Shown here piece after piece: positions 5,192-16,540 of a stretch of 32,000 bases of DNA (position 1 is the stretch's first letter; each line of letters starts with the position of its first letter). The stretch is taken from the NCBI GenBank assembly GCA_030668875.1, contig DAOVER010000030.1, positions 5,849-37,848 of the forward strand. Reading direction: 5' to 3'. The notes below the pieces were generated by a model that saw only the letters and a program-made list of their open reading frames with translations, was not told the DNA's origin and searched no databases. The stretch is from Candidatus Heimdallarchaeota archaeon (GTDB taxonomy: Archaea > Asgardarchaeota > Heimdallarchaeia > Heimdallarchaeales > Heimdallarchaeaceae). Position numbers and translations under genes: made by a program.

Positions 5192-6310
5192 ATGAGTAAC
5201 ACTGATATTAAACCCAAACCAAAACTCTCTTTCTTTCTTAAGAATCTTAGATTGCTTTGGAAATTAAAACGAGCCAATAGGAAGGTTGGTGAGGATTTTG
5301 TTAATGCCAACAAGAAGCTTCTAGAGCCTATCTATCCTGTTTCTGAAGGTAATAAAGGACCCATGGAAGAGGGTATGATTTATGTTATGTTTAACTCTGA
5401 AGGAAAAGAAGATCCGATCAAGATTAATACTGTTTTCAGGTTTTTCTGGGTTGATTCTCCTTCTCTTCGTTTATCTGTTCTCGATTCTTATATTGTTTCG
5501 GAAAAATTTTCTTCTAGACAGTGGGAAACATTCTACCCCAAAGGAGTTCTATTAAATAAATCAAAAAATCGTTATCATCAAGAAGTTGCTGAACCTGAAC
5601 TTGATTTTCTTATCGATGGCACTTGGGAAGAAGGTTATACCTTTGAGTTCCATGATAAAAAACTAGATATGAAAGCTAAATTGACTTATACTCCTCTTAC
5701 CCCCAAGGGGATCTTAGTCTATTATAATGGTAGAATGGCTATTAGTCCTTCTATGGCACAAGAATTCTATGATAGTTTTGCTTTCAAAGTTACAGGAGAA
5801 TTTATTGTAGAAGGTAAGAAAGTAGAAATCAAAAATGGGCGAGGAATTATTGAGCATGGGACAGGTATATTTTCTATTCTAAATATATACGACTGGCGAT
5901 GGCTTAACCTTCAATTTCCAGAAGGATCTATTCATTTATTCTATCATTCACTAGATATAAAGGACGAAGGAATATTTGAAGCAGGAGAAGGTGCTTTAGT
6001 TATGAATGATGAATGGTTCCATTTTCAACCATATGACTTCATGATAGAAGAGCAAGGCTACTCTGAAGATGAGAATATCCCCTCCAAAGTGCCAACAGAG
6101 TGGAAAGTAACTGGAGGAAAAGATGAGACAGGCAAACCTCTCTTAGTCTTGAAAGTTACAACTAATGCTAAAATAACTTGGATTGGTAAACTTGGTAAAG
6201 AAAACCAATTTATCACTAATTATGTTTTAACTGCTGAAGGTACCTGGAAAGGCAAGAAGATTAAAGGAAAAGGAACTATGGAGAATATAATGCATAGAAT
6301 AATAGAGTAA
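5192..6310 (+). CDS. Lipocalin-like/AttH-CrtC-like beta-barrel protein, function unknown
   Basis: 372-aa beta-rich ORF. Motifs GRGIIEHGTG...WRWLNLQF, PTEWKV and C-terminal EGTWKGKKIKGKGTME resemble AttH/CrtC/tocopherol-cyclase-like folds (recognition only). Confidence 0.55.
   Translation: MSNTDIKPKPKLSFFLKNLRLLWKLKRANRKVGEDFVNANKKLLEPIYPVSEGNKGPMEEGMIYVMFNSEGKEDPIKINTVFRFFWVDSPSLRLSVLDSYIVSEKFSSRQWETFYPKGVLLNKSKNRYHQEVAEPELDFLIDGTWEEGYTFEFHDKKLDMKAKLTYTPLTPKGILVYYNGRMAISPSMAQEFYDSFAFKVTGEFIVEGKKVEIKNGRGIIEHGTGIFSILNIYDWRWLNLQFPEGSIHLFYHSLDIKDEGIFEAGEGALVMNDEWFHFQPYDFMIEEQGYSEDENIPSKVPTEWKVTGGKDETGKPLLVLKVTTNAKITWIGKLGKENQFITNYVLTAEGTWKGKKIKGKGTMENIMHRIIE
6241..6310 (+). repeat. Repeat A: last 70 bp of the 5192-6310 gene, duplicated at 8702-8771
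   Basis: 68/70 identical to 8702-8771. Both differences are synonymous (ACC/ACT, GAG/GAA). Confidence 0.97.
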
Positions 6311-6559
6311 ATAATCACTATTTACTCCGCTTCTATTGCGAACTTTCTCCTATGTTATTAATGAGACAAGGAGATAGAATGTATTCATTATACCTAAACT
6401 AATTTTTCTCTCATTTAATTCTTCTGTACAATTAACTCTTGTCAATCTATTTAATAATTCAATACTTCCTTTCTTAAAATTGAGGTTTTTTTCTCTTCCT
6501 AATCTATGACTACTAAATGTGAGTAATAATCTTACTAGATTGCAATTGAGAATTTATTT

Positions 6560-8551
6560 TTAATTGGGAAAATACTGACTATTCTTTCGTCGTATATGGC
6601 AAAGAGTAACAAAGGACGCAAATAAAATTACGAAATAACCTTTTAGAATAGTAAACTCACCTATTATTACTACTGTTGGTTCATTTAAGGGATAAGGATC
6701 AATAGAAGAAGAAGAGCCAGTTATTAGATAATCACCCGTTCCACTATAATCCGACCAGTAATTTCCTTCATTAGTTTCAGGGTCATACCAAGTATTATTG
6801 ATCCCATCATCATAAGCTTGTACGGGGTTACTATTATTGACGAATGTATTATGGTGAATAAGGTTGTTATCTGAACCAGTCAAATAAACACCATAACCAT
6901 TATCGATAATAAGATTCCAAGAAAGAAGATTGAAGTCAGAAGAAGCAAGACGGATACCATGGTTAGTATTCGAGCTAAATATATTGTCCGTCAAAGAATT
7001 ATTATTTGAATCATAAGTATCGATGCCCATCAGATTATTTGAGTTGCAGGTATTATTTGTTAAAAAATTAAAATTAGAAGAATAAACAAGATTGACGCCT
7101 ATATCATTATTTGAACAATCATTATCCATCAAAGAATTACTAGAAGATGAAGAAATATACATGCCTTGATGATCATTTGAATTGCATAAATTATCCGTCA
7201 TAGAATTAAAGTCAGAAGAAGTATAAAGACAAATGCCCCAGCCATTATTTGAACAATCATTATCCGTCAAAGAATTATTATTAGAATTGTAAAGGTGGAC
7301 GGCATAAAAATCATTTAAGGTGAATGTATTGTTCATTAAAGAATTACTAGAAGAAAAACGAAGAGAGGTACCATGACGATAATTTGAGGTACATATATTG
7401 TCCGTCAAAGAATTATTATTAGAATAATCATGAAGATAGATGCCATGGTAAGTATTAAATCTGCAAGTATTTTTCGTTAAAGAATTGTTATTAGAAAAAT
7501 CATAAAGATAAACTCCATGATAATTACTTGAGCAATTATTGTTCATCAAGGAATTGAAGTCTGAAGATTCAATATAGAATCCGTATTCTTCATTTAAGAC
7601 GCATGTATTATTCGTTAAAGAATTATTATTAGAAAGTTCAATATATATGCCTTGATAATTATTTGAATTGCAATTATTATTTATCAAAGAATTAAAGTTA
7701 CAAGAATCATAAAGACGGATGCCCCAGCCATTATCTAAACAATCATTGTCCGTCAAAGAATTATCATTAGAAGAATCATAAAGATAGATTCCATAAAAAG
7801 AATTAAAGGTACACATATTGTCTGTCAAAGAATTATTATTAGAAGAAACAAGATAGATCCCATAACCATTGTTTGTACATAGATTCCTTTCCAAAGAATT
7901 ATTATCTGAAAAATGAAGATAGATACCTTGATGAGGATTATCAGAACAATTATTGTCCGTCAAAGAATTGTTATTAGAAGAAGCAAGATAGATCCCATGG
8001 TAATCATTTAAGTTGCAGGTATTATTCGTCAAAGAATTGTTATTAGAAGAAGCAAGATGGATCCCATAGCTATTATTTTGGCAGAAATTATTTTCTATCT
8101 TAGCAGTACCAGATGCAACACTATCAATGTAAATTCCATAAATACTAGCTACTCCTCCTGTATCAATAGAATTATTGCGGATAAAGAAATGTTTAGTGGT
8201 ACCACTGATATAGATTCCATGGACACCAGAAGTATTTATTTCCCACCCTTCAATAATATATGGGTCTCCAGAAGTACCTGAACCACTTGCTACACCATTT
8301 GCAGAAGTGAAGTCAGTATTATTATTTATCTCAATAGGCGCATGAGCAGAATAAGAGTAATCTAAAGAAAGCTGATAATCCATTGAACCTAAGGTTAAAG
8401 AACCACCCACTTCTGTTGTAGAACAACTTTGTATTGTTGTTTGATTATCTTGTCCATAAGTCTGTGAAGAGGATAAAATTAACCCTCCTACCAAACATAG
8501 TACAAGAAGGTAATATCTGATTGATTTGTGAGATTCTAACATTGAAAACAT
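6560..8551 (-). CDS. Secreted right-handed parallel beta-helix (NosD/CASH-like) cell-surface protein with C-terminal anchor
   Basis: Signal peptide, APIEIN...GSGTSGDPYIIEG cap, many ~22-23-aa GIxLxxSxNNSLTxNxCxxN repeats, NTWY...GNYWSDY cap, then GEF plus TM helix plus RRK. Confidence 0.9.
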   Translation of the reverse strand: MFSMLESHKSIRYYLLVLCLVGGLILSSSQTYGQDNQTTIQSCSTTEVGGSLTLGSMDYQLSLDYSYSAHAPIEINNNTDFTSANGVASGSGTSGDPYIIEGWEINTSGVHGIYISGTTKHFFIRNNSIDTGGVASIYGIYIDSVASGTAKIENNFCQNNSYGIHLASSNNNSLTNNTCNLNDYHGIYLASSNNNSLTDNNCSDNPHQGIYLHFSDNNSLERNLCTNNGYGIYLVSSNNNSLTDNMCTFNSFYGIYLYDSSNDNSLTDNDCLDNGWGIRLYDSCNFNSLINNNCNSNNYQGIYIELSNNNSLTNNTCVLNEEYGFYIESSDFNSLMNNNCSSNYHGVYLYDFSNNNSLTKNTCRFNTYHGIYLHDYSNNNSLTDNICTSNYRHGTSLRFSSSNSLMNNTFTLNDFYAVHLYNSNNNSLTDNDCSNNGWGICLYTSSDFNSMTDNLCNSNDHQGMYISSSSSNSLMDNDCSNNDIGVNLVYSSNFNFLTNNTCNSNNLMGIDTYDSNNNSLTDNIFSSNTNHGIRLASSDFNLLSWNLIIDNGYGVYLTGSDNNLIHHNTFVNNSNPVQAYDDGINNTWYDPETNEGNYWSDYSGTGDYLITGSSSSIDPYPLNEPTVVIIGEFTILKGYFVILFASFVTLCHIRRKNSQYFPN
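6960..8070 (-). repeat. Intragenic tandem coding repeats (~66-69 bp period) of the beta-helix gene
   Basis: Recurrent GTCCGTCAAAGAATTATTATTAGAAG-like units on the + strand, matching the NNSLTDN protein repeats. Confidence 0.85.
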
Positions 8552-8636
8552 AAAATTATTCCAACCTACCTACCTTTAGTAAGTTACTTTTTCCTTTTAA
8601 GGATTATGGAAAATGGGCCTTTGAGATAATATATAC

Positions 8637-8771
8637 ATAAAAAAGGAGTTAATAAGATTTAACTCTTTATGCTTTTCTGCTATTTTTTCTGCCATTACGT
8701 CTACTTGGAAAGGCAAGAAGATTAAAGGAAAAGGAACTATGGAGAATATAATGCATAGAATAATAGAATAA
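8637..8771. repeat. Chimeric junction B'|A': copy of the fprA 3' end and T-tract (8637-8703) fused to a copy of the 5192-6310 gene 3' end (8702-8771)
   Basis: 8654-8703 matches 10008-10057 at 47/50, and homology extends through ATAAAAAAGG (8637-8646 vs 9989-9998). 8702-8771 matches 6241-6310 at 68/70. The two pieces share a 2-bp TA overlap. Confidence 0.95.
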
Positions 8772-8819
8772 TTTGCTGAATATCTTGGAATGATCATATT
8801 ATAGGTTGTGGATGTTTTT

Positions 8820-9689
8820 TTACATCTCTTCAAGAATTGTTTTTTTGATTGTTTGTGTGAATTCATATACACTTGGTTTGGTATGACAGTAATCATATGA
8901 TTGTATATCGATAAACTTGCTGTTTAATATTAATTCATGAATCATTTGAATTTCATCAGATTCATGATATTTATCATCTGGTGTTCTAACAATGAAAACA
9001 GGAATCTTCATTTTCTTAAAATCCTCTGTTGCATCCCAATAATGTAAATCTCTACAAGGTTTCCATCTTTGTAGATCAGCATTTTTGATTCTGTCATAGA
9101 AGACTTGTTTTTGAAACCCATCAGCTACTTTATTCCTAAAATATATTCTAGCAACCAGCTTTCCTAGAGAATTCAACACAAAAGCAGGAAATAAGGAAAA
9201 GATATTTATTAATTTACTTGGAGCTCGTGGTTTTCTAGCTGGGCCTGTCAAGAAACAACCTTTTGATGTAATCATGTTTTGCCCTACTAGGTGTGCAACA
9301 TAACTTGCACCAATACTAGAGCCAAAAAGAACTAATTTCTTTTCATCAAGCTTTAGAAATTTAATTGCTTCAGCTAAATCAAGAGCAATTCGATGAACTG
9401 AACACTCACTGCTTTTCATCAATTTATTAGACTTCTTCTCTCTTGGATCAACAATAACTAGATTGAATTCTTGATGTAAAGCATCCCAAAAGTCATTCCA
9501 AGTGAAATATCCTGATGCGAAACCTTGAACAAAGAAAAAGACAATATCAGATTTCGTTTTGTCACCTAAGGAATACTGACAAAAAATTTTTTGACCATCA
9601 GACATTTGGATATAAACTTTGCTTGATTCTTTAAGGAAAATAGTGTCCTGAGTTTCTTTTTCTACACATGAATTTCTTTTCATATACAT
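8820..9689 (-). CDS. Alpha/beta hydrolase fold protein
   Basis: VQGFASG oxyanion-like motif, nucleophile elbow GSSIG, DDKYH acid region and late His (YCH). Confidence 0.85.
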   Translation of the reverse strand: MYMKRNSCVEKETQDTIFLKESSKVYIQMSDGQKIFCQYSLGDKTKSDIVFFFVQGFASGYFTWNDFWDALHQEFNLVIVDPREKKSNKLMKSSECSVHRIALDLAEAIKFLKLDEKKLVLFGSSIGASYVAHLVGQNMITSKGCFLTGPARKPRAPSKLINIFSLFPAFVLNSLGKLVARIYFRNKVADGFQKQVFYDRIKNADLQRWKPCRDLHYWDATEDFKKMKIPVFIVRTPDDKYHESDEIQMIHELILNSKFIDIQSYDYCHTKPSVYEFTQTIKKTILEEM

Positions 9690-9821
9690 ACTTCCTTTAA
9701 GTCTATGTGAGGAAACAATGTAATCTAAAGCTTTTAACTCCTGTAGATAATATTACTTAGTGAGTGATTTTCCAATTTAAAACATTTTTTGTCTTTATTT
9801 CTTTCTTAGTTACATTTTATA

Positions 9822-9990
9822 TCAGAGGAAAGTGTTTTGTTCTAACAACAAGGCACACCATTAAAACAATCGAATCGATTTCTATGTTAATCTCTATATT
9901 ATTTTATCATTTTTGTCTCTCTTCTGTACAATCACATTTTCCAACTCAAGTTGCTTCAAGAATTTCATTATTCCGAGGGGTCTCAATGAT
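9822..9990 (-). pseudogene. Possible decayed fragment of a winged-helix regulator
   Basis: The minus frame reads MKFLKQLELENVIVQKRDKNDKII*RLT*KSIRLF*, which resembles a wHTH recognition helix plus wing (L..LE...I....YRLT.K) with in-frame stops. Confidence 0.35.
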
Positions 9991-10057
9991 AAAAAAGGGA
10001 TTTAAAGAAGATTTAGCTCTTTATGCTTTTCTGCTATTTTTTCTGCCATTGTGTCTA
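9989..10057 (-). repeat. Repeat B: fprA 3' end plus T-tract, duplicated at 8637-8703
   Basis: Encodes DTMAEKIAEKHKELNLL*. The copy at 8637-8703 encodes DVMAEKIAEKHKELNL. Confidence 0.95.
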
Positions 10058-11183
10058 ATGCTTTGAAAATTTCTTCTTTTGGATGACCTTTGGCATAAAC
10101 AGGTTCTAAAATCTCAACATCCTTTAATCCAGGTACCATACTGACAACTTGATCTATTGTCTTTGTAAACCATCCATACGAACCAATTACTGAAATTAGT
10201 TTAATTTTTGGTTTCAAGGCATTTAGTAGATAGGCTGCATATACTGCTAATGGATGGGGACCGCCATGAACTGTAGGAGTACCAAGAATCACTGTAGCAG
10301 CATCGACTAGAGTTATAGCAAGTTTTCCTATATCTACAACAGCTAAATCAAACTGATGGACAGTCACACCTTTTTTTGCTAATGCACCAACTAAGTATTC
10401 TACCATGATTCTTGTGCTTCCGTGCATGGATACATAAGGAATAACAGCAACATTTTTTGGTGTATCTGCAATCCAATCTTCATAAGCATCTATTATAAAC
10501 GATGGTTTGTCATAAATAGGTCCATGACTGGGAGCTATCAGTTGTATTTCCAATTGTTTTACTTTCTCAATGTTTTTTCGAATAATTTTGCTAAAAGGCA
10601 TCATTATTTCTGCAAAATATCTTTTAGCAGCTTCATAGACTAATCCTTCATCTTTAACATAGAGATCGGTTGTTGCAACATGTGAACCAAAGAAGTCACA
10701 AGAAAAGAGTATTTTATCTTCTATAAGGTAGGAAACCATTGTTTCTGGCCAATGAACCCATGGAGTATGGATGAATTTTAATGTTTTATCACCTAAACCA
10801 ATTTCCTCCCCGTCTTCTACAATCTGTATTTGTTCTAGAGAAATTAACAAATGATCTATCAACATCTCTTTTCCTTTTTTAGTTGCGAGAACTTTAGCTG
10901 ATGGATATTTCTTAAGAACAGCTGGTATTAACCCTGAATGATCTTGTTCTGTATGGTGAGATACAATGTAATCAATTTTTTCAACATCTTTCAATTGAAA
11001 GAAAAACGTATCTGTCATGCTTGGATCTACAGTGTCGAGCAAAACGGTTTTTTCACTTCCTTGAATCAAATATGAATTATAACTAGTTCCATCTGGAAGA
11101 GGTATAAGCGAATCAAATAACCTTCTATCCCAATCAATTCCACCTAACCAATAAACATTTTCGATTATCTTTCGTTTTTTCAT
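10002..11183 (-). CDS. fprA: Flavodiiron protein (A-type flavoprotein, metallo-beta-lactamase plus flavodoxin domains)
   Basis: GTSYNSYLI, SHHTEQDHSG, HTPWVHWPET, CDFFGSH, PSHGP, YVSMHGST and GSYGW motifs. The likely start is the ATG at 11183 (MKKRKII). Confidence 0.95.
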   Translation of the reverse strand: MKKRKIIENVYWLGGIDWDRRLFDSLIPLPDGTSYNSYLIQGSEKTVLLDTVDPSMTDTFFFQLKDVEKIDYIVSHHTEQDHSGLIPAVLKKYPSAKVLATKKGKEMLIDHLLISLEQIQIVEDGEEIGLGDKTLKFIHTPWVHWPETMVSYLIEDKILFSCDFFGSHVATTDLYVKDEGLVYEAAKRYFAEIMMPFSKIIRKNIEKVKQLEIQLIAPSHGPIYDKPSFIIDAYEDWIADTPKNVAVIPYVSMHGSTRIMVEYLVGALAKKGVTVHQFDLAVVDIGKLAITLVDAATVILGTPTVHGGPHPLAVYAAYLLNALKPKIKLISVIGSYGWFTKTIDQVVSMVPGLKDVEILEPVYAKGHPKEEIFKALDTMAEKIAEKHKELNLL

Positions 11184-11451
11184 GTGAAATAAAAAAAATA
11201 GGAGTATATAACTTATTCTTAAGGACAATTATATCTAAAATTGATCTCATACTTGGAAGAAAAAGTGATTGTAGAAACATTCTTCTTTATTCCATTATTT
11301 GTGGGAAATAGAAAGTTACATAGGTATACCTAATCTTCTAATCCTATTACACTTTACAAAACTCTTTCACTTGTGATTATCACTACATCCTTCATATATG
11401 TATTCAGCAATAAACTTAAGGTGAATATTGTACTATTTCACTTGAAAAATT

Positions 11452-12552
11452 ATGCGAAAAATCATGTTTGCAGCTTTAGTTGTGATTCATGGTTTCATTC
11501 ACCTTTTAGGATTTTTTAAAGCATTCAATTTAGCTGATATTAGTTTGTTAACACAAAGTATTTCAAAACCACTAGGGATTCTTTGGTTGCTTGCAGCAAT
11601 CATCTTTTTGACAGTAGTTGTTTTGTATTTGTTAAAGAGCGGATGGTGGTGGATTCCAGCAGTTTTAGCAATTATTCTCTCTCAAACATTGATCATATCT
11701 TCGTGGGTAGATTCTCAATTTGGAACATTGGCTAATATATTAATTCTTCCTGTTTCAATTGTTGGATTTGCTACTTGGCTTTTCAATTTAAAAGTGAAAC
11801 AGGAAAAGAAAGAGGTTTTATTGCAATCTTCCCCACAAGACAAAACTTTGATCACCGAAGAAAACATATCTAATTTACCAAGTCCTGTGCAAAACTGGCT
11901 TAAAAATTCAGGAATTGTGGTAAAAGAAAAGATACGAACAGCCTATCTCAAACAAAGTGGACTTATGAGATTAAAACCTAATCAAGAGAAATGGATTAAA
12001 GTAGAAGCTGAACAATATATTACAAATAACCCTTCATTTATTTGGAAGGCTAACTTGTCTATGATACCATTGATAAATGTCGTTGGTAGAGATCTTTATC
12101 TTCATGGTCAAGGAAGTATGAAGATTAAAATTGCTTCAATTATACCCGTCGTTAATGTTTCGAATAACGACAAACTCAACCAAGCTACACTACAACGTTA
12201 TTTAGGAGAAATTGTTTGGTTTCCTTCTGCTGCAATTAGTCCATATATTAGCTGGGAAGAAATAGATGATCTTTCTGCTAAAGCAACAATGACATTTAAT
12301 GATGTTTCGGGTGATGCAGTATTTCATTTTAATGAAAAAGGCGATTTGGATAAATTTACCGCACAAAGGTATTATGAAACTGATGAAAGTGCTGAATTGA
12401 AAGAATGGATTGCTGAAGTAAAGGAAACGAATATTGTAAATGGTGTTAGAATACCTACAAAATTAGAAATTTCTTGGGTTCTGGATACAGGTGTATTTAC
12501 TTGGTATAAATTTGAAGTGTTTGATATTGAATACAATCAAGACGATTCCTAA
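11452..12552 (+). CDS. DUF6544-like membrane-anchored protein
   Basis: N-terminal TM bundle (HGFIHLLGF, FGTLANILIL) followed by a soluble domain with P.PVQ.WL, W.....QY, F.W.A, GRD.Y..G.G.M and RYL.E..W.P motifs. Confidence 0.7.
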   Translation: MRKIMFAALVVIHGFIHLLGFFKAFNLADISLLTQSISKPLGILWLLAAIIFLTVVVLYLLKSGWWWIPAVLAIILSQTLIISSWVDSQFGTLANILILPVSIVGFATWLFNLKVKQEKKEVLLQSSPQDKTLITEENISNLPSPVQNWLKNSGIVVKEKIRTAYLKQSGLMRLKPNQEKWIKVEAEQYITNNPSFIWKANLSMIPLINVVGRDLYLHGQGSMKIKIASIIPVVNVSNNDKLNQATLQRYLGEIVWFPSAAISPYISWEEIDDLSAKATMTFNDVSGDAVFHFNEKGDLDKFTAQRYYETDESAELKEWIAEVKETNIVNGVRIPTKLEISWVLDTGVFTWYKFEVFDIEYNQDDS

Positions 12553-12751: not shown

Positions 12752-13216
12752 TTAATTTAGTTCTTCATTATATTCTGCTCTGGTAGAATCATATTTTTTC
12801 GCTTCATCTGGGTCTGTTAGATTATTCCAATACTCCTTATATCTGCTAGGGATGTCTTGAATGTTTTCGTGATTGAGTATATAATTAGTGGGCATAGGGT
12901 GAGTTCCTATCTCTACCTTAACTCTTATATTCTTCTCAATATGATTTTTGAAAACATCTATGTTAGGACATGGAGGGTATCCGGCTAACATACCAGTTGC
13001 AAAATGTATAACGTTTGCACCATAATTTTTCATTCCTGAAGCAACATATTCAATATTGCCTCCTGGGCACCCACCACAAGTTGAGTAACCAATTACTTCC
13101 ACTTCTTCTTTACCATACCTTTTAAAAGCGCCATCTCGTTCTCTAACAGCCCTGAAACATTTCCCTCCATTGCAAGTTTTATAACGATCACAAATAATAA
13201 TGCCTATTCTTTTCAT
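12752..13216 (-). CDS. CGGC-domain (putative metal/Fe-S binding) protein
   Basis: IIICDRY..CNGGKC, GYSTCGGCPG, PPCP and GTH motifs. Confidence 0.9.
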   Translation of the reverse strand: MKRIGIIICDRYKTCNGGKCFRAVRERDGAFKRYGKEEVEVIGYSTCGGCPGGNIEYVASGMKNYGANVIHFATGMLAGYPPCPNIDVFKNHIEKNIRVKVEIGTHPMPTNYILNHENIQDIPSRYKEYWNNLTDPDEAKKYDSTRAEYNEELN

Positions 13217-13458: not shown

Positions 13459-16102
13459 TTATTTTTTAGGTTTCTTAATTAGTTTGACAATAGTAAAAAC
13501 TCCCCAGATTGATGCTACTGCTCCTGCACCAACGAGTGTACCCCAACTTTGGAAAAATGAAACAAATGATGATGGAATTGTTAAGTCTATAGTAAAATTG
13601 TAACAATGGTTGTTTCCTGCATTATCATAAGCTACAACCGTGATGTTGTGTGGACCACTATCTTGTTGAATACTAGTGTCCCAGTTATATTCGTAGATAG
13701 TATCTTCTTGAGGTGTTGTAAGAGTAGCAATCAATTGAAGATTATCAATAACCTCAACCTTTTGTATACCACTTCCAATATCAGAAGCATTGATTTTGAT
13801 GTTTGTTATACCAATCGATGGAGAGGTTGCGAGATCAACTATTACCACGTTTGGTTCTATGTCATCTATTATTTCGTATGAATAAAATGCTCCTGAATTG
13901 TCATCTACTCTTAGATTCCCTTTTGTATCAAGTAATTCAAACCTAAACTGAACGTTTGTTCCATAGTCAAAAGCTGGTAGTGTAACCTCATAATTACCCA
14001 TATACGGAATACAAGGTAATCCGACCCAGTTTGATTCATACAGGTAGAAAAGGTTAATCTCTTCAATTTCTGATAGTAAATCTTCTGCAAAGATATCCAT
14101 CTTAACTTTATCGTAGTAGGTGGGGGTATCCAAAATTTCCCACGAGAGTAATTCTGGTCCATTTGTGTCTTTTACAAAGTTCATATCATCAAACATTACT
14201 GAAACATAACTACCTGTGCCATATGCTGCTGCAACTAATTCTACCCTAGTTAGATTCCAAAGTTCATCTCCAAAAGCATTAGAAGCATCTTTACTAATAT
14301 CTCGAACTAAATTATTCCATACTCCAGTTTGGTTAAATTGTTTAACCAAATAGCATTGGGTGCTACTTGTATTTGTAAAAGATGCTACTTGCCCAGCTCC
14401 AAGAATGTAGTGGATATTATAACCTCCTTCAAATGTTAATTTTATAGTGGAAAAGGAATTCGTTACTGCATCAATAGAGTTCAATTTCCACCAAAAATCT
14501 GTATAGAGATTGTCTCTGACGTAGAACATCAGATTTCTATATAGTGAAACTTCGCCATAATTTTCAAAGGATGTGAGATTAGCTCCCCAAATTCTGCTAT
14601 GGCTGTCATCTGTTGAAGATATGTGTGTTTCAGTAGAGCTAGTACTCCAGCTTGTAATAGGAACAGAAGGAGTTCTATACCATTCTTCTTCAAAAGAAGG
14701 ATCAGCTAAAGGATAAGTGTTGATTTGTAAATCATCGATTAATAAATTAACTGTGGAATTTGCATAGTATCCAGAATTAGTAATCAAACTAAGACTAGTA
14801 ATAACTTGATTACTTAAATTAAAGGCTTCGTAAAGCTCAAACATATCAATGTGAAAATGATTCCAAGCCCCTTTTACGCTAGATAAAGAGGTGTTCAAGT
14901 AATAATACTCGTAAGTTGGTTGGGAGTAATTTGACCAAGGAATTTCATCTTGACCACTTCCTAAAAACCAGTAAAAATAGCTTTGATAACTTTCATTTTG
15001 CCCTTGTAAATAGAAATATGCATATTGTTCAGTACCACCGTTTAAAACATCTGTATATTTCCAATCAAAGTCTATCTCCACCATTCCAGGTGATGAAGGA
15101 TAGTATCCCCTCCTAAACGTTTCATAGGATGACATAGAGTAAGAAATAGAACTTGATGAACTTGAACTTGCGTAGTAAGAATTTGCTGTCAAATTCAAAG
15201 ATTTATCTCCTTCTATTGAATCATCACTTAATCCAATGTACCCTCTTCCTTCTTTGTTACCTGCCCAACTTGATCCTGTCCCTGTTTCAAAATCTCCATT
15301 ATCAGCTAAATAGTTGAAGGAAGAATCATTTTGCATACTAACGTCGTCTATAACTAGTTCAGTGAAACCAGTACCATGATACGGTGAAGTTGAGTAGAAA
15401 TATATGTAATATACATATACTGTAGAAGAAACACTTCCAAAAGCTTGTTCAAAATCATTTGTAACATTTCTTTGTGCTAAATGTTGCCAACTAGCTGCAG
15501 GTCTAATCATATTGAAATATGCTCGATAAGTGTCATTCGTCATCGAAAAGGAAGATGCTGATAAATAATAGTTTATAGTATACCATTGAAAAATAGCTGG
15601 ATCAAATATTCTTAGTCTCGCATAAGAACTACCTCCAATAGTTATATCTGGATTAGCAACTGTATTCCACCAAAAATCTAAAGATATATTCTCAGCTAAA
15701 TTCGGTAAAAAAGGTTGACTATAATATCCCCAAATTATGTAATTAGTTGCACCACTAATTTTTGTTCCCTCACACGAAGAGTACCCTGAATATAAACCAT
15801 TATGTGTTAGTGATTGATAGTTAAGTTCACTGTAAGAGTTGCTGCTAATAGAATGGTCCATACGTTCAGGTAGGCCTTCAGGAGTTGACTCTTCAAAGTT
15901 CCCATTAGGAATAATATTCGTCCATAATTGTTCTTCTCCTCCAGCTCCTACTGCTGCAAAAATTTGATTTATTTTACTCTGCTGGGGAGAATTGTTTGTT
16001 GTGGATATTTGTTTACCTAATACTAGATCTGAAGTAACTGTTGAAATAAAAAAAAATCGTAAGTAGGAAAACTGCTAAAATAGTTTTACTTTTCTTTTTC
16101 AT
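13459..16102 (-). CDS. Large secreted surface protein (~880 aa; three CBM-like beta-sandwich repeats, Ig-like domains, C-terminal anchor), frameshifted in an A9 tract
   Basis: ATG at 16102 gives MKKKSKTILAVFLLTIFF. Removing one A from the 16048-16056 run joins it in frame to the 15861 ORF via ISTVTSDLVLG...IIPNGNFEE. Repeated NGNFE/NGDFE/DPSFE domain starts, then a C-terminal TM helix plus KKPKK. Confidence 0.85.
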
Positions 16103-16295
16103 TATATCGCCTTTTATTGTATTTAATTGGATAATTACCTTTTTAAGATAATCATCTAAAATATATAAAGTTTCTTTGTAACTGTTTTAAATCATGAAAA
16201 TTAGTTTTTAAGAAAAAAAAGGAGGAAAAATATTATATTATATTATTTTTCATTTCGATTCACTTATGACATGAATTGTGTACAAATTCTTTAGA

Positions 16296-16426
16296 AGTGC
16301 CTGAGCACATCATGGAGACGCCACATCCCCTCCTACACCGCCCACATCTTCTTTCAAAGGTGCTTACGGTTCGCTTTTGGATGTTCGTTGGATGTAGCCC
16401 CGAGGATCATCATGTAATTGATGCAT
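16296..16426. ncRNA. Candidate structured RNA or cis-element (GC-rich intergenic island), unassigned
   Basis: About half G+C against an AT-rich background. GCCACATCC (16320-16328) can pair with GGATGTAGC (16390-16398), with ACATCT/GGATGT nested inside. No known family recognised. Confidence 0.25.
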
Positions 16427-16540
16427 AGCTACAATCCTTAAATTTATAATCTACACTACCCTACTTAAACTCCAAAAAAATGTACAAAAAGTATGTTGTA
16501 AACAGATGAAATGAGCCTTAAATTTGAAGTTTTTGGTTTT

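Follow-up and report, generated by a model that had tools for sequence, protein, structure and literature searches.

How two unrelated genes came to stand in series between the same two neighbors, with only copies of those neighbors' own ends at the boundary between them, is the question raised by a 32,000-nucleotide stretch of archaeal DNA (hereafter the window). It comes from a metagenome-assembled genome (MAG) of Candidatus Heimdallarchaeota (Heimdall group, Asgard; marine sediment), here called G000, which comprises 99 contigs and 3.23 Mb and is 92% complete with 4.4% contamination. The window covers positions 5849-37848 of contig C10 and reaches the end of that 37.8-kb contig. In it, gene A, of unassigned function, and a convergent fprA-like flavodiiron gene enclose a beta-helix gene (X) and a hydrolase gene (Y), and between X and Y lie orphan copies of the ends of fprA (B') and of gene A (A'). 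We conclude that this joint is the scar of one unusual recombination event and not a new integron-like system.

The boundary consists of two short gene-end copies fused back to back. Gene A (5192-6310, forward strand) ends in a 70-nt arm (6241-6310, its last 22 codons and stop), the source or partner of the orphan copy A' at 8702-8771 on the same strand, with which it shares 97% identity (68/70; BLAST E 1.3e-27). The second arm is formed by the 3' end and T-tract of the fprA-like gene (9989-10057, reverse strand). Its orphan counterpart B' (8637-8703, reverse strand) comprises the last 17 codons followed by a hairpin and T-tract. The repeat search paired 8651-8703 with 10005-10057 (53 nt, 92%), and BLAST on the whole assembly gave 8637-8703 and 9989-10057 (88%, E 3e-18), with small indels just past the stop codon. 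No further copy of either arm was found by BLAST in the 3.23-Mb assembly. A' and B' abut and overlap by a TA at 8702-8703, the microhomology common to both arms. These repeats, their coordinates and the TA overlap had been read in a preliminary description made from the sequence, and the repeat search and the whole-assembly BLAST bore them out.

A and A' differ at 6244 (C/T) and 6307 (G/A), and both differences are synonymous, as had been claimed, because the two 22-codon translations are identical. The interiors are unrelated, again as first described: Pfam matches place X (6560-8551, reverse strand, 663 aa, with 69-nt internal repeats) among NosD-like right-handed beta-helix proteins and assign Y (8820-9689, reverse strand, 289 aa), by weak matches, to the alpha/beta-hydrolase fold. 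The X and Y units each have 85-300 nt of upstream DNA of their own, and the upstream (promoter) region of X, at 8552-8636, is contiguous with the B' remnant. The spacer from the stop of A to that of X (6311-6559) is unique in the genome and has no transposon-like ends, and the spacer from the stop of A' to that of Y (8772-8819) is conserved with the A-Y spacer of two relatives, G010 and G021. Gene A and the fprA-like gene are both intact, in agreement with the statement that neither flanking gene had been broken. Folding of the joint (8637-8771) revealed just the small fprA terminator hairpin (z -2.5 and -1.9), and the repeat search reported no inverted repeat within this boundary. The joint itself serves no function, beyond a possible termination of Y transcripts, ahead of the X promoter, by the hairpin and T-tract of B'.

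Judging by the states they carry, the arms derive from two different alleles, not from a tandem duplication of resident DNA. B' and B differ at 8/67 positions, four of them coding, and in three of these four (the A in TTTAACTC and the AC in CATTACG) B' has the states of the fprA genes of G016, G010 or G017. Past the stop region B' continues into a hairpin and T-tract like those of G010, and it directly adjoins the region upstream of X. These other-allele states, together with the continuity, indicate that X once adjoined a complete fprA of another allele. The states of A', ACT and GAA-TAA, are both those of G010 and G021, and gene A of G000 has a private ACC along with the GAG of the other species. 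The allele states of the arms thus argue against tandem duplication followed by decay, and for the joining of an A-X-fprA allele to an A-Y-fprA allele. The two-allele origin proposed in the preliminary description is supported by these matches of A' and B' to other species.

The same position was compared in the 23 other genomes of the genus. Gene A was present in 10 of them, in full or near-full length in 7. G010 has the order A, Y (89% aa identity), fprA (93% aa identity) and a CGGC-domain gene, with no X. Window positions 8703-10298, with the 47-nt spacer that separates the A' and Y stops, aligned unbroken to the A-Y-fprA segment of G010 (92% identity), and this unbroken colinearity with its conserved spacer indicates that A'-Y-fprA is the orthologous arrangement. 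In G021, contigs C61 and C328 have the same starting base in gene A, in codon 313, and share 67 identical nt before single-nucleotide differences appear; one continues after A into Y (89% identical, as in G010) and the other into two unrelated genes, forming a strain bubble. Six other species have different genes after A. Unrelated contents were found at one position in G010, G021 and G000, and A and fprA are adjacent only in G000 and G010, lying 53 kb apart in G001. From these comparisons, the DNA after A is variable across the genus, with a conserved A-fprA slot limited to the G000/G010 lineage. The claim that the slot is variable was therefore confirmed by the A-Y-fprA order of G010, the two continuations of G021 and the six species with other genes after A. 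Gene X had no orthologue in the genus (best 38% identity), and its best public relatives, 56-60% identical across roughly half of the protein, come from contigs that contain neither A nor fprA. In another genome, G011, contig C46 stops immediately after the 'AC' of codon 351 in gene A; the next base is the one at which A and A' of G000 differ.

A joint of this kind in a MAG has to be distinguished from an artifact of assembly. Many contig ends of G000 overlap by exactly 141 nt at 100% identity, which identifies it as a k=141 de Bruijn (MEGAHIT) assembly; MEGAHIT-style k141 contig names are also frequent among the MAGs of relatives having gene A. Read-derived data came from independent Logan contigs (k=31) of four runs of one marine-sediment study (X1-X4; run labels, not to be confused with gene X), aligned to window positions 5900-10400. 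These runs contain 90-97% of the sampled words of window 6000-10300. From the G000 assembly, a k=31 graph is predicted to break at 6274, 6277, 7987, 8029, 8692, 8738 and 10046. The X1 contigs ended at exactly these positions, and the X2 contig ends agreed with every predicted break reached, among the contigs listed. Those of X4 also agreed with the predicted breaks reached among the contigs listed, except for an end at 8683 instead of 8692. Mean depths in X1 were 36.3 for A, 38.2 for X, 36.7 for the X-upstream/B' segment, 34.2 for Y and 34.9 for fprA; the corresponding values in X2 were 36.8, 35.1, 36.2, 30.7-37 and 36.3. In runs X2-X4, contigs diverging at window positions 8818, 10002 and 10009 carry Y with other sequence past its stop and fprA ends with two other flanks, indicating that further alleles of both genes coexist in the community. 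One alternative fprA downstream flank in the sediment runs resembles the flank of B'.

It is very unlikely that the assembler, or a chimeric read, strung together separate A-X-fprA and A-Y-fprA haplotypes. The 99 contigs and 4.4% contamination of this MAG leave room for such an error, and the further Y and fprA haplotypes in X2-X4, the G021 strain bubble at the same place and the lack of a bridging contig among the contigs listed are all in keeping with it. A k=141 de Bruijn graph, however, cannot bridge a 2-nt overlap without reads, and so cannot link sequences having just TA in common; any 141-mer over the 135-nt block must derive from reads, including unique sequence on at least one side. 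Nor do the arms form one collapsed k-mer node, since they differ from each other. A, X, Y and fprA were equally deep, at about 35-38x, in X1 and X2, which is not the pattern of alternative haplotypes: the flanks shared by such haplotypes would carry the summed depth, with A equal to X plus Y. Among the X1 contigs aligned at 90% identity or more, there was no second A body and none of fprA that ran on from B'; the sole extra fprA-end contig had a depth of 5 and another downstream flank, resembling that of other species. The flank depth in X1 was thus not the sum of the interiors, and the arms did not run on into second gene bodies. We conclude that the structure is a real, single structural variant. 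Reads across the junction had been put forward at the outset as a check on it; the k=31 contig breaks and depths fit the stack, but no single contig among those listed spans the joint.

How, then, were the two alleles joined? We consider it rather probable that the A-X-fprA and A-Y-fprA alleles were linked head to tail by one recombination event, half homologous and half illegitimate. Homologous exchange within a flanking gene common to both alleles would account for one side. The other side would be an illegitimate TA join, which links the fprA end of one allele, 67 nt in, with gene A of the other allele, 70 nt short of its stop. Candidate routes are homology-facilitated illegitimate recombination and a template switch at the edge of homology (break-induced replication). 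Either would add one gene, keep A and fprA unbroken and leave the orphan ends B' and A' as a scar. The TA microhomology at the join, the intact A and fprA flanks and the derivation of the arms from different alleles all fit homology-facilitated illegitimate recombination. Joins arising close to the limit of homology would explain the shortness of the duplicated arms. The simplest candidate for the added piece is the block made of the A end, X and B' (2461 nt), a polarity favored by the synteny with G010 and by a parallel case on contig C57, described below. Identity to G010 along the window was 82% in A, 92% in Y-fprA, 85% in the CGGC gene and 87% at 16.6-19.9 kb, with no clear break.

The route originally suggested, which we regard as possible but unlikely, is that a fragment of a sibling strain consisting of the last 70 nt of A, X and a 67-nt fprA end, or its Y equivalent, was circularized at the TA and then integrated in Campbell fashion, by a single homologous crossover through one of the arms of roughly 70 nt. 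The product fits exactly: the order and both repeat pairs seen here are those expected, arm length would simply be the homology present on the circle, and other loci, where copies of a gene end flank a single inserted gene, are what insertion-duplication would give. The single-event route fits just as well, and circularization demands two rare steps (end joining, then crossover through a 70-nt arm), one more than is needed. Among the contigs listed there was no joint of the circle type (10057 to 8702), with the proviso that rare forms drop out of contigs. A circle also offers no reason for the short arms (58-134 nt) of five loci, whereas joining near the edge of homology does. Markedly less probable is an order of events in which A-end-Y-fprA-end was duplicated in tandem at the TA and the first Y was later swapped for X by allelic exchange. 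Spontaneous tandem duplications with 2-nt junctions are common, and the final product would be the same. This history nevertheless requires two events instead of one, its replacement step needs a crossover inside the 67-nt B' stub, and the 8/67 differences between B' and B match alleles of other species rather than random decay.

Several points weigh against a real stack made from two alleles in one half-homologous event. The X3 contig begins at 6245 rather than 6277, which is not fully explained. Among the contigs listed, none bridges 8693-8737, so that read support for the joint comes from depth book-keeping. In that book-keeping, bin 8618-8768 has a value of 74.2, which a 69-nt joint unitig of about 36x explains only on condition that contigs fitting two places are counted once. 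The value of 36.8 in bin 6202-6352 indicates that they are so counted, but 34 nt at 73x would contribute as much as 69 nt at 36x, which leaves the depth of bin 8618-8768 ambiguous and a weak support. The four runs belong to a single study, and one of them is possibly the source sample. Exact look-up of the X and Y proteins in public assemblies matched nothing and so gave no independent assembly of the joint. Whereas the predicted single-cassette arrangement A-hydrolase-fprA was found in G010, its counterpart A-beta-helix-fprA, the putative parental allele, was not found in the genus genomes, in Joint Genome Institute (JGI) metagenome contigs or among the public relatives of X. The sequence does not separate a linear one-sided event from a circle with a single crossover, nor does it name the resident allele.

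The preliminary description had further compared the locus with an integron-like array and proposed a genome-wide check for other back-to-back gene-end copies. In a whole-genome scan of G000 for orphan gene-end copies, no other such fusion was found. Searched for with a degenerate 25-nt pattern across it, the joint was absent from the 23 other genus genomes and from the JGI metagenome contigs. The scan did reveal four or five further loci with gene-end remnants or flanking repeats. On C57, the last 134 nt of a gene for an 1806-aa UvrA-like protein are repeated 907 nt downstream (5350-5483 and 6257-6390), and the repeat encloses a gene for a 218-aa protein of metallo-beta-lactamase fold. The site is empty in relatives (G002:C155 and G021:C400); the ancestral end and flank persist in the displaced remnant downstream, and the intact gene has a different end beside the insert. 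By sequence comparison, this is the same pattern as A/A', and C57 is the clear parallel case in G000. On C15, 131 nt from the end of a 385-aa gene recur 724 nt downstream (12265-12395 and 12989-13119), with no open reading frame (ORF) of at least 80 aa between. On C3, a 58-nt direct repeat of unassigned origin (54367-54424 and 56449-56506, 97%) surrounds another NosD-like beta-helix gene, and C47 carries a single gene-end remnant of 175 nt. On C95 (82715-85014), a 529-aa gene of unassigned family lies between a 71-nt copy of an FtsX-like gene end and that gene itself. It is bracketed by 54-nt inverted repeats (82963-83016 and 84777-84830), and its homologue in G002:C330 is inverted relative to the flanks. 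This segment may be invertible within a paralogue array, and we rejected it as a clean further example because the array has repeated 5' segments and the inverted repeats.

These remnants bear on the notion of a dedicated, integrase-free system that would stack cassettes by docking at gene ends in the manner of an integron. Gene 3'-end remnants beside small inserted genes on C57, C95, C15 and perhaps C47, together with the C3 repeat, lend it some color, but we hold such a system to be highly improbable. A single two-cassette stack was found, no motif is common to the repeats or to the cassette ends, and the X and Y flanks are unique in the genome. Pfam detected no recombinase, integrase or transposase among the 19 ORFs of the window. 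The tyrosine recombinase/integrase model PF00589 had no match in the whole 92%-complete MAG and was present in 14/14 control genomes, four of them archaeal. With the same model, no XerA-type recombinase was detected in G000. At the joint, the fold check, which used no dedicated attC model, revealed no attC-like fold. The absence of attC sites and of a nearby integrase, as first described, was thus confirmed by folding, Pfam and PF00589; the integron-like array itself was not borne out, there being one joint only, no shared cassette ends and no other fusion in genome or genus. The interval also lacks the marks of a transposon: it has no repeated element ends and no transposase or integrase, and its flanks have no copies elsewhere.

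A broader view, which we put forward as speculative and on present evidence doubtful, is that gene-end-anchored capture is a recurrent, integrase-free way of gaining single genes in Heimdall-group archaea. Incoming DNA would pair with a conserved gene end, bringing its own copy of that end and a neighboring gene, and microhomology would close the joint at a point 58-134 nt within the end of the resident gene. In this way cassettes would accumulate behind conserved genes, with orphan gene ends in their wake, and C10 would represent a stack whose two flanks are both shared, so that both scars are visible. If it is true that the other gene-end remnants share this process, they would define an integrase-free route of additive gene gain. 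Taken alone, the C10 stack is an isolated structural variant that adds one more instance, from an unusual organism, to a known kind of event. It is a natural record of a variable slot gaining a gene instead of swapping one, with the 2-base joint still readable and both parental alleles preserved side by side, in an archaeon from the group nearest to eukaryotes. For users of MAGs, it illustrates that independent k-mer contigs and depth can tell a true stack of alleles from a haplotype chimera.

The remaining features of the region concern the genes themselves. Gene A encodes 372 aa and has orthologues of 78-83% identity in 7-8 species of the genus; having no Pfam or PDB sequence match, it could not be confirmed as 'lipocalin-like', the label first given to it. 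The 408-aa product of the fprA-like gene (10002-11228, reverse strand) is 84-94% identical across the genus and has ODP/metallo-beta-lactamase and flavodoxin matches in Pfam, fitting a flavodiiron protein. X may encode a surface-exposed structure. Downstream of fprA, further indels separate the window from G010:C129. In the window a DUF6544/DUF6920 gene (11452-12552) separates fprA from the CGGC gene; G010:C129 has no match to it, and about 100 nt lie between fprA and the CGGC gene there. Likewise, the gene for an 800-aa surface protein with Ig domains (13459-15861) has no match there, and a 2.7-kb gap stands at its place in G010. A segment of about 240 nt (16263-16502) adjoins the surface-protein gene flagged at first reading for an A9 frameshift and has more than 8 copies each in G010 and G016, at 79-90% identity; it is either a dispersed repeat or an upstream element conserved within a gene family.

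Among known systems, integron arrays resemble the C10 locus in presenting unrelated single-gene units in the same orientation and in series at one place. They differ in that IntI, attI and attC are absent here, the C10 units have their own upstream regions, and the sole boundary is made of two ordinary gene ends. In place of several promoter-less, reshuffling cassettes, there are two units only. Campbell-type insertion-duplication, familiar from plasmids and laboratory constructs, also places an insert between direct repeats of a homologous segment and leaves the flanking gene intact if that segment holds its end. Here it would need a natural circle derived from a chromosomal allele, and none was seen among the contigs listed. 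The mORF elements of fungal mitochondria share with A/A' and with the UvrA-like gene of C57 the habit of bringing in their own copy of a gene end and pushing the old end downstream, untranslated. They carry an endonuclease that drives insertion, whereas X, Y and the C57 insert encode beta-helix, hydrolase and metallo-beta-lactamase-fold proteins and no nuclease. Aloposons, large tRNA-targeting elements with giant genes (PMC8813620), were considered and set aside as not relevant.

Two further comparisons are with forms of homologous exchange. Replacement flexible genomic islands carry unrelated genes, often for exposed structures, between conserved flanks (Lopez-Perez et al. 2014; PMC4033161), and the C10 slot is like them in its alternative unrelated content at one place and in the synonymous changes of the bordering gene ends. 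Such islands are gene clusters and are swapped cleanly through crossovers in both flanks; the C10 slot holds one gene per version, and its swap would have failed on one side, so that both versions were kept with a scar. Homology-facilitated illegitimate recombination has been described for natural transformation in bacteria, and the C10 host is an uncultured Asgard archaeon known from sequence alone. Joins at 3-10 bp are on record for transformable bacteria (PMC6382021 and the studies cited there), and PMC6382021 makes no mention of duplication of the anchor. At C10 the microhomology is 2 nt, and the join lies 70 nt inside a homologous gene end, which accounts for the short duplication. In its essentials the C10 joint would follow the same design, in which a homologous anchor on one side and a join at a tiny microhomology on the other add foreign DNA beside a conserved gene, with neither a dedicated recombinase nor a specific site.

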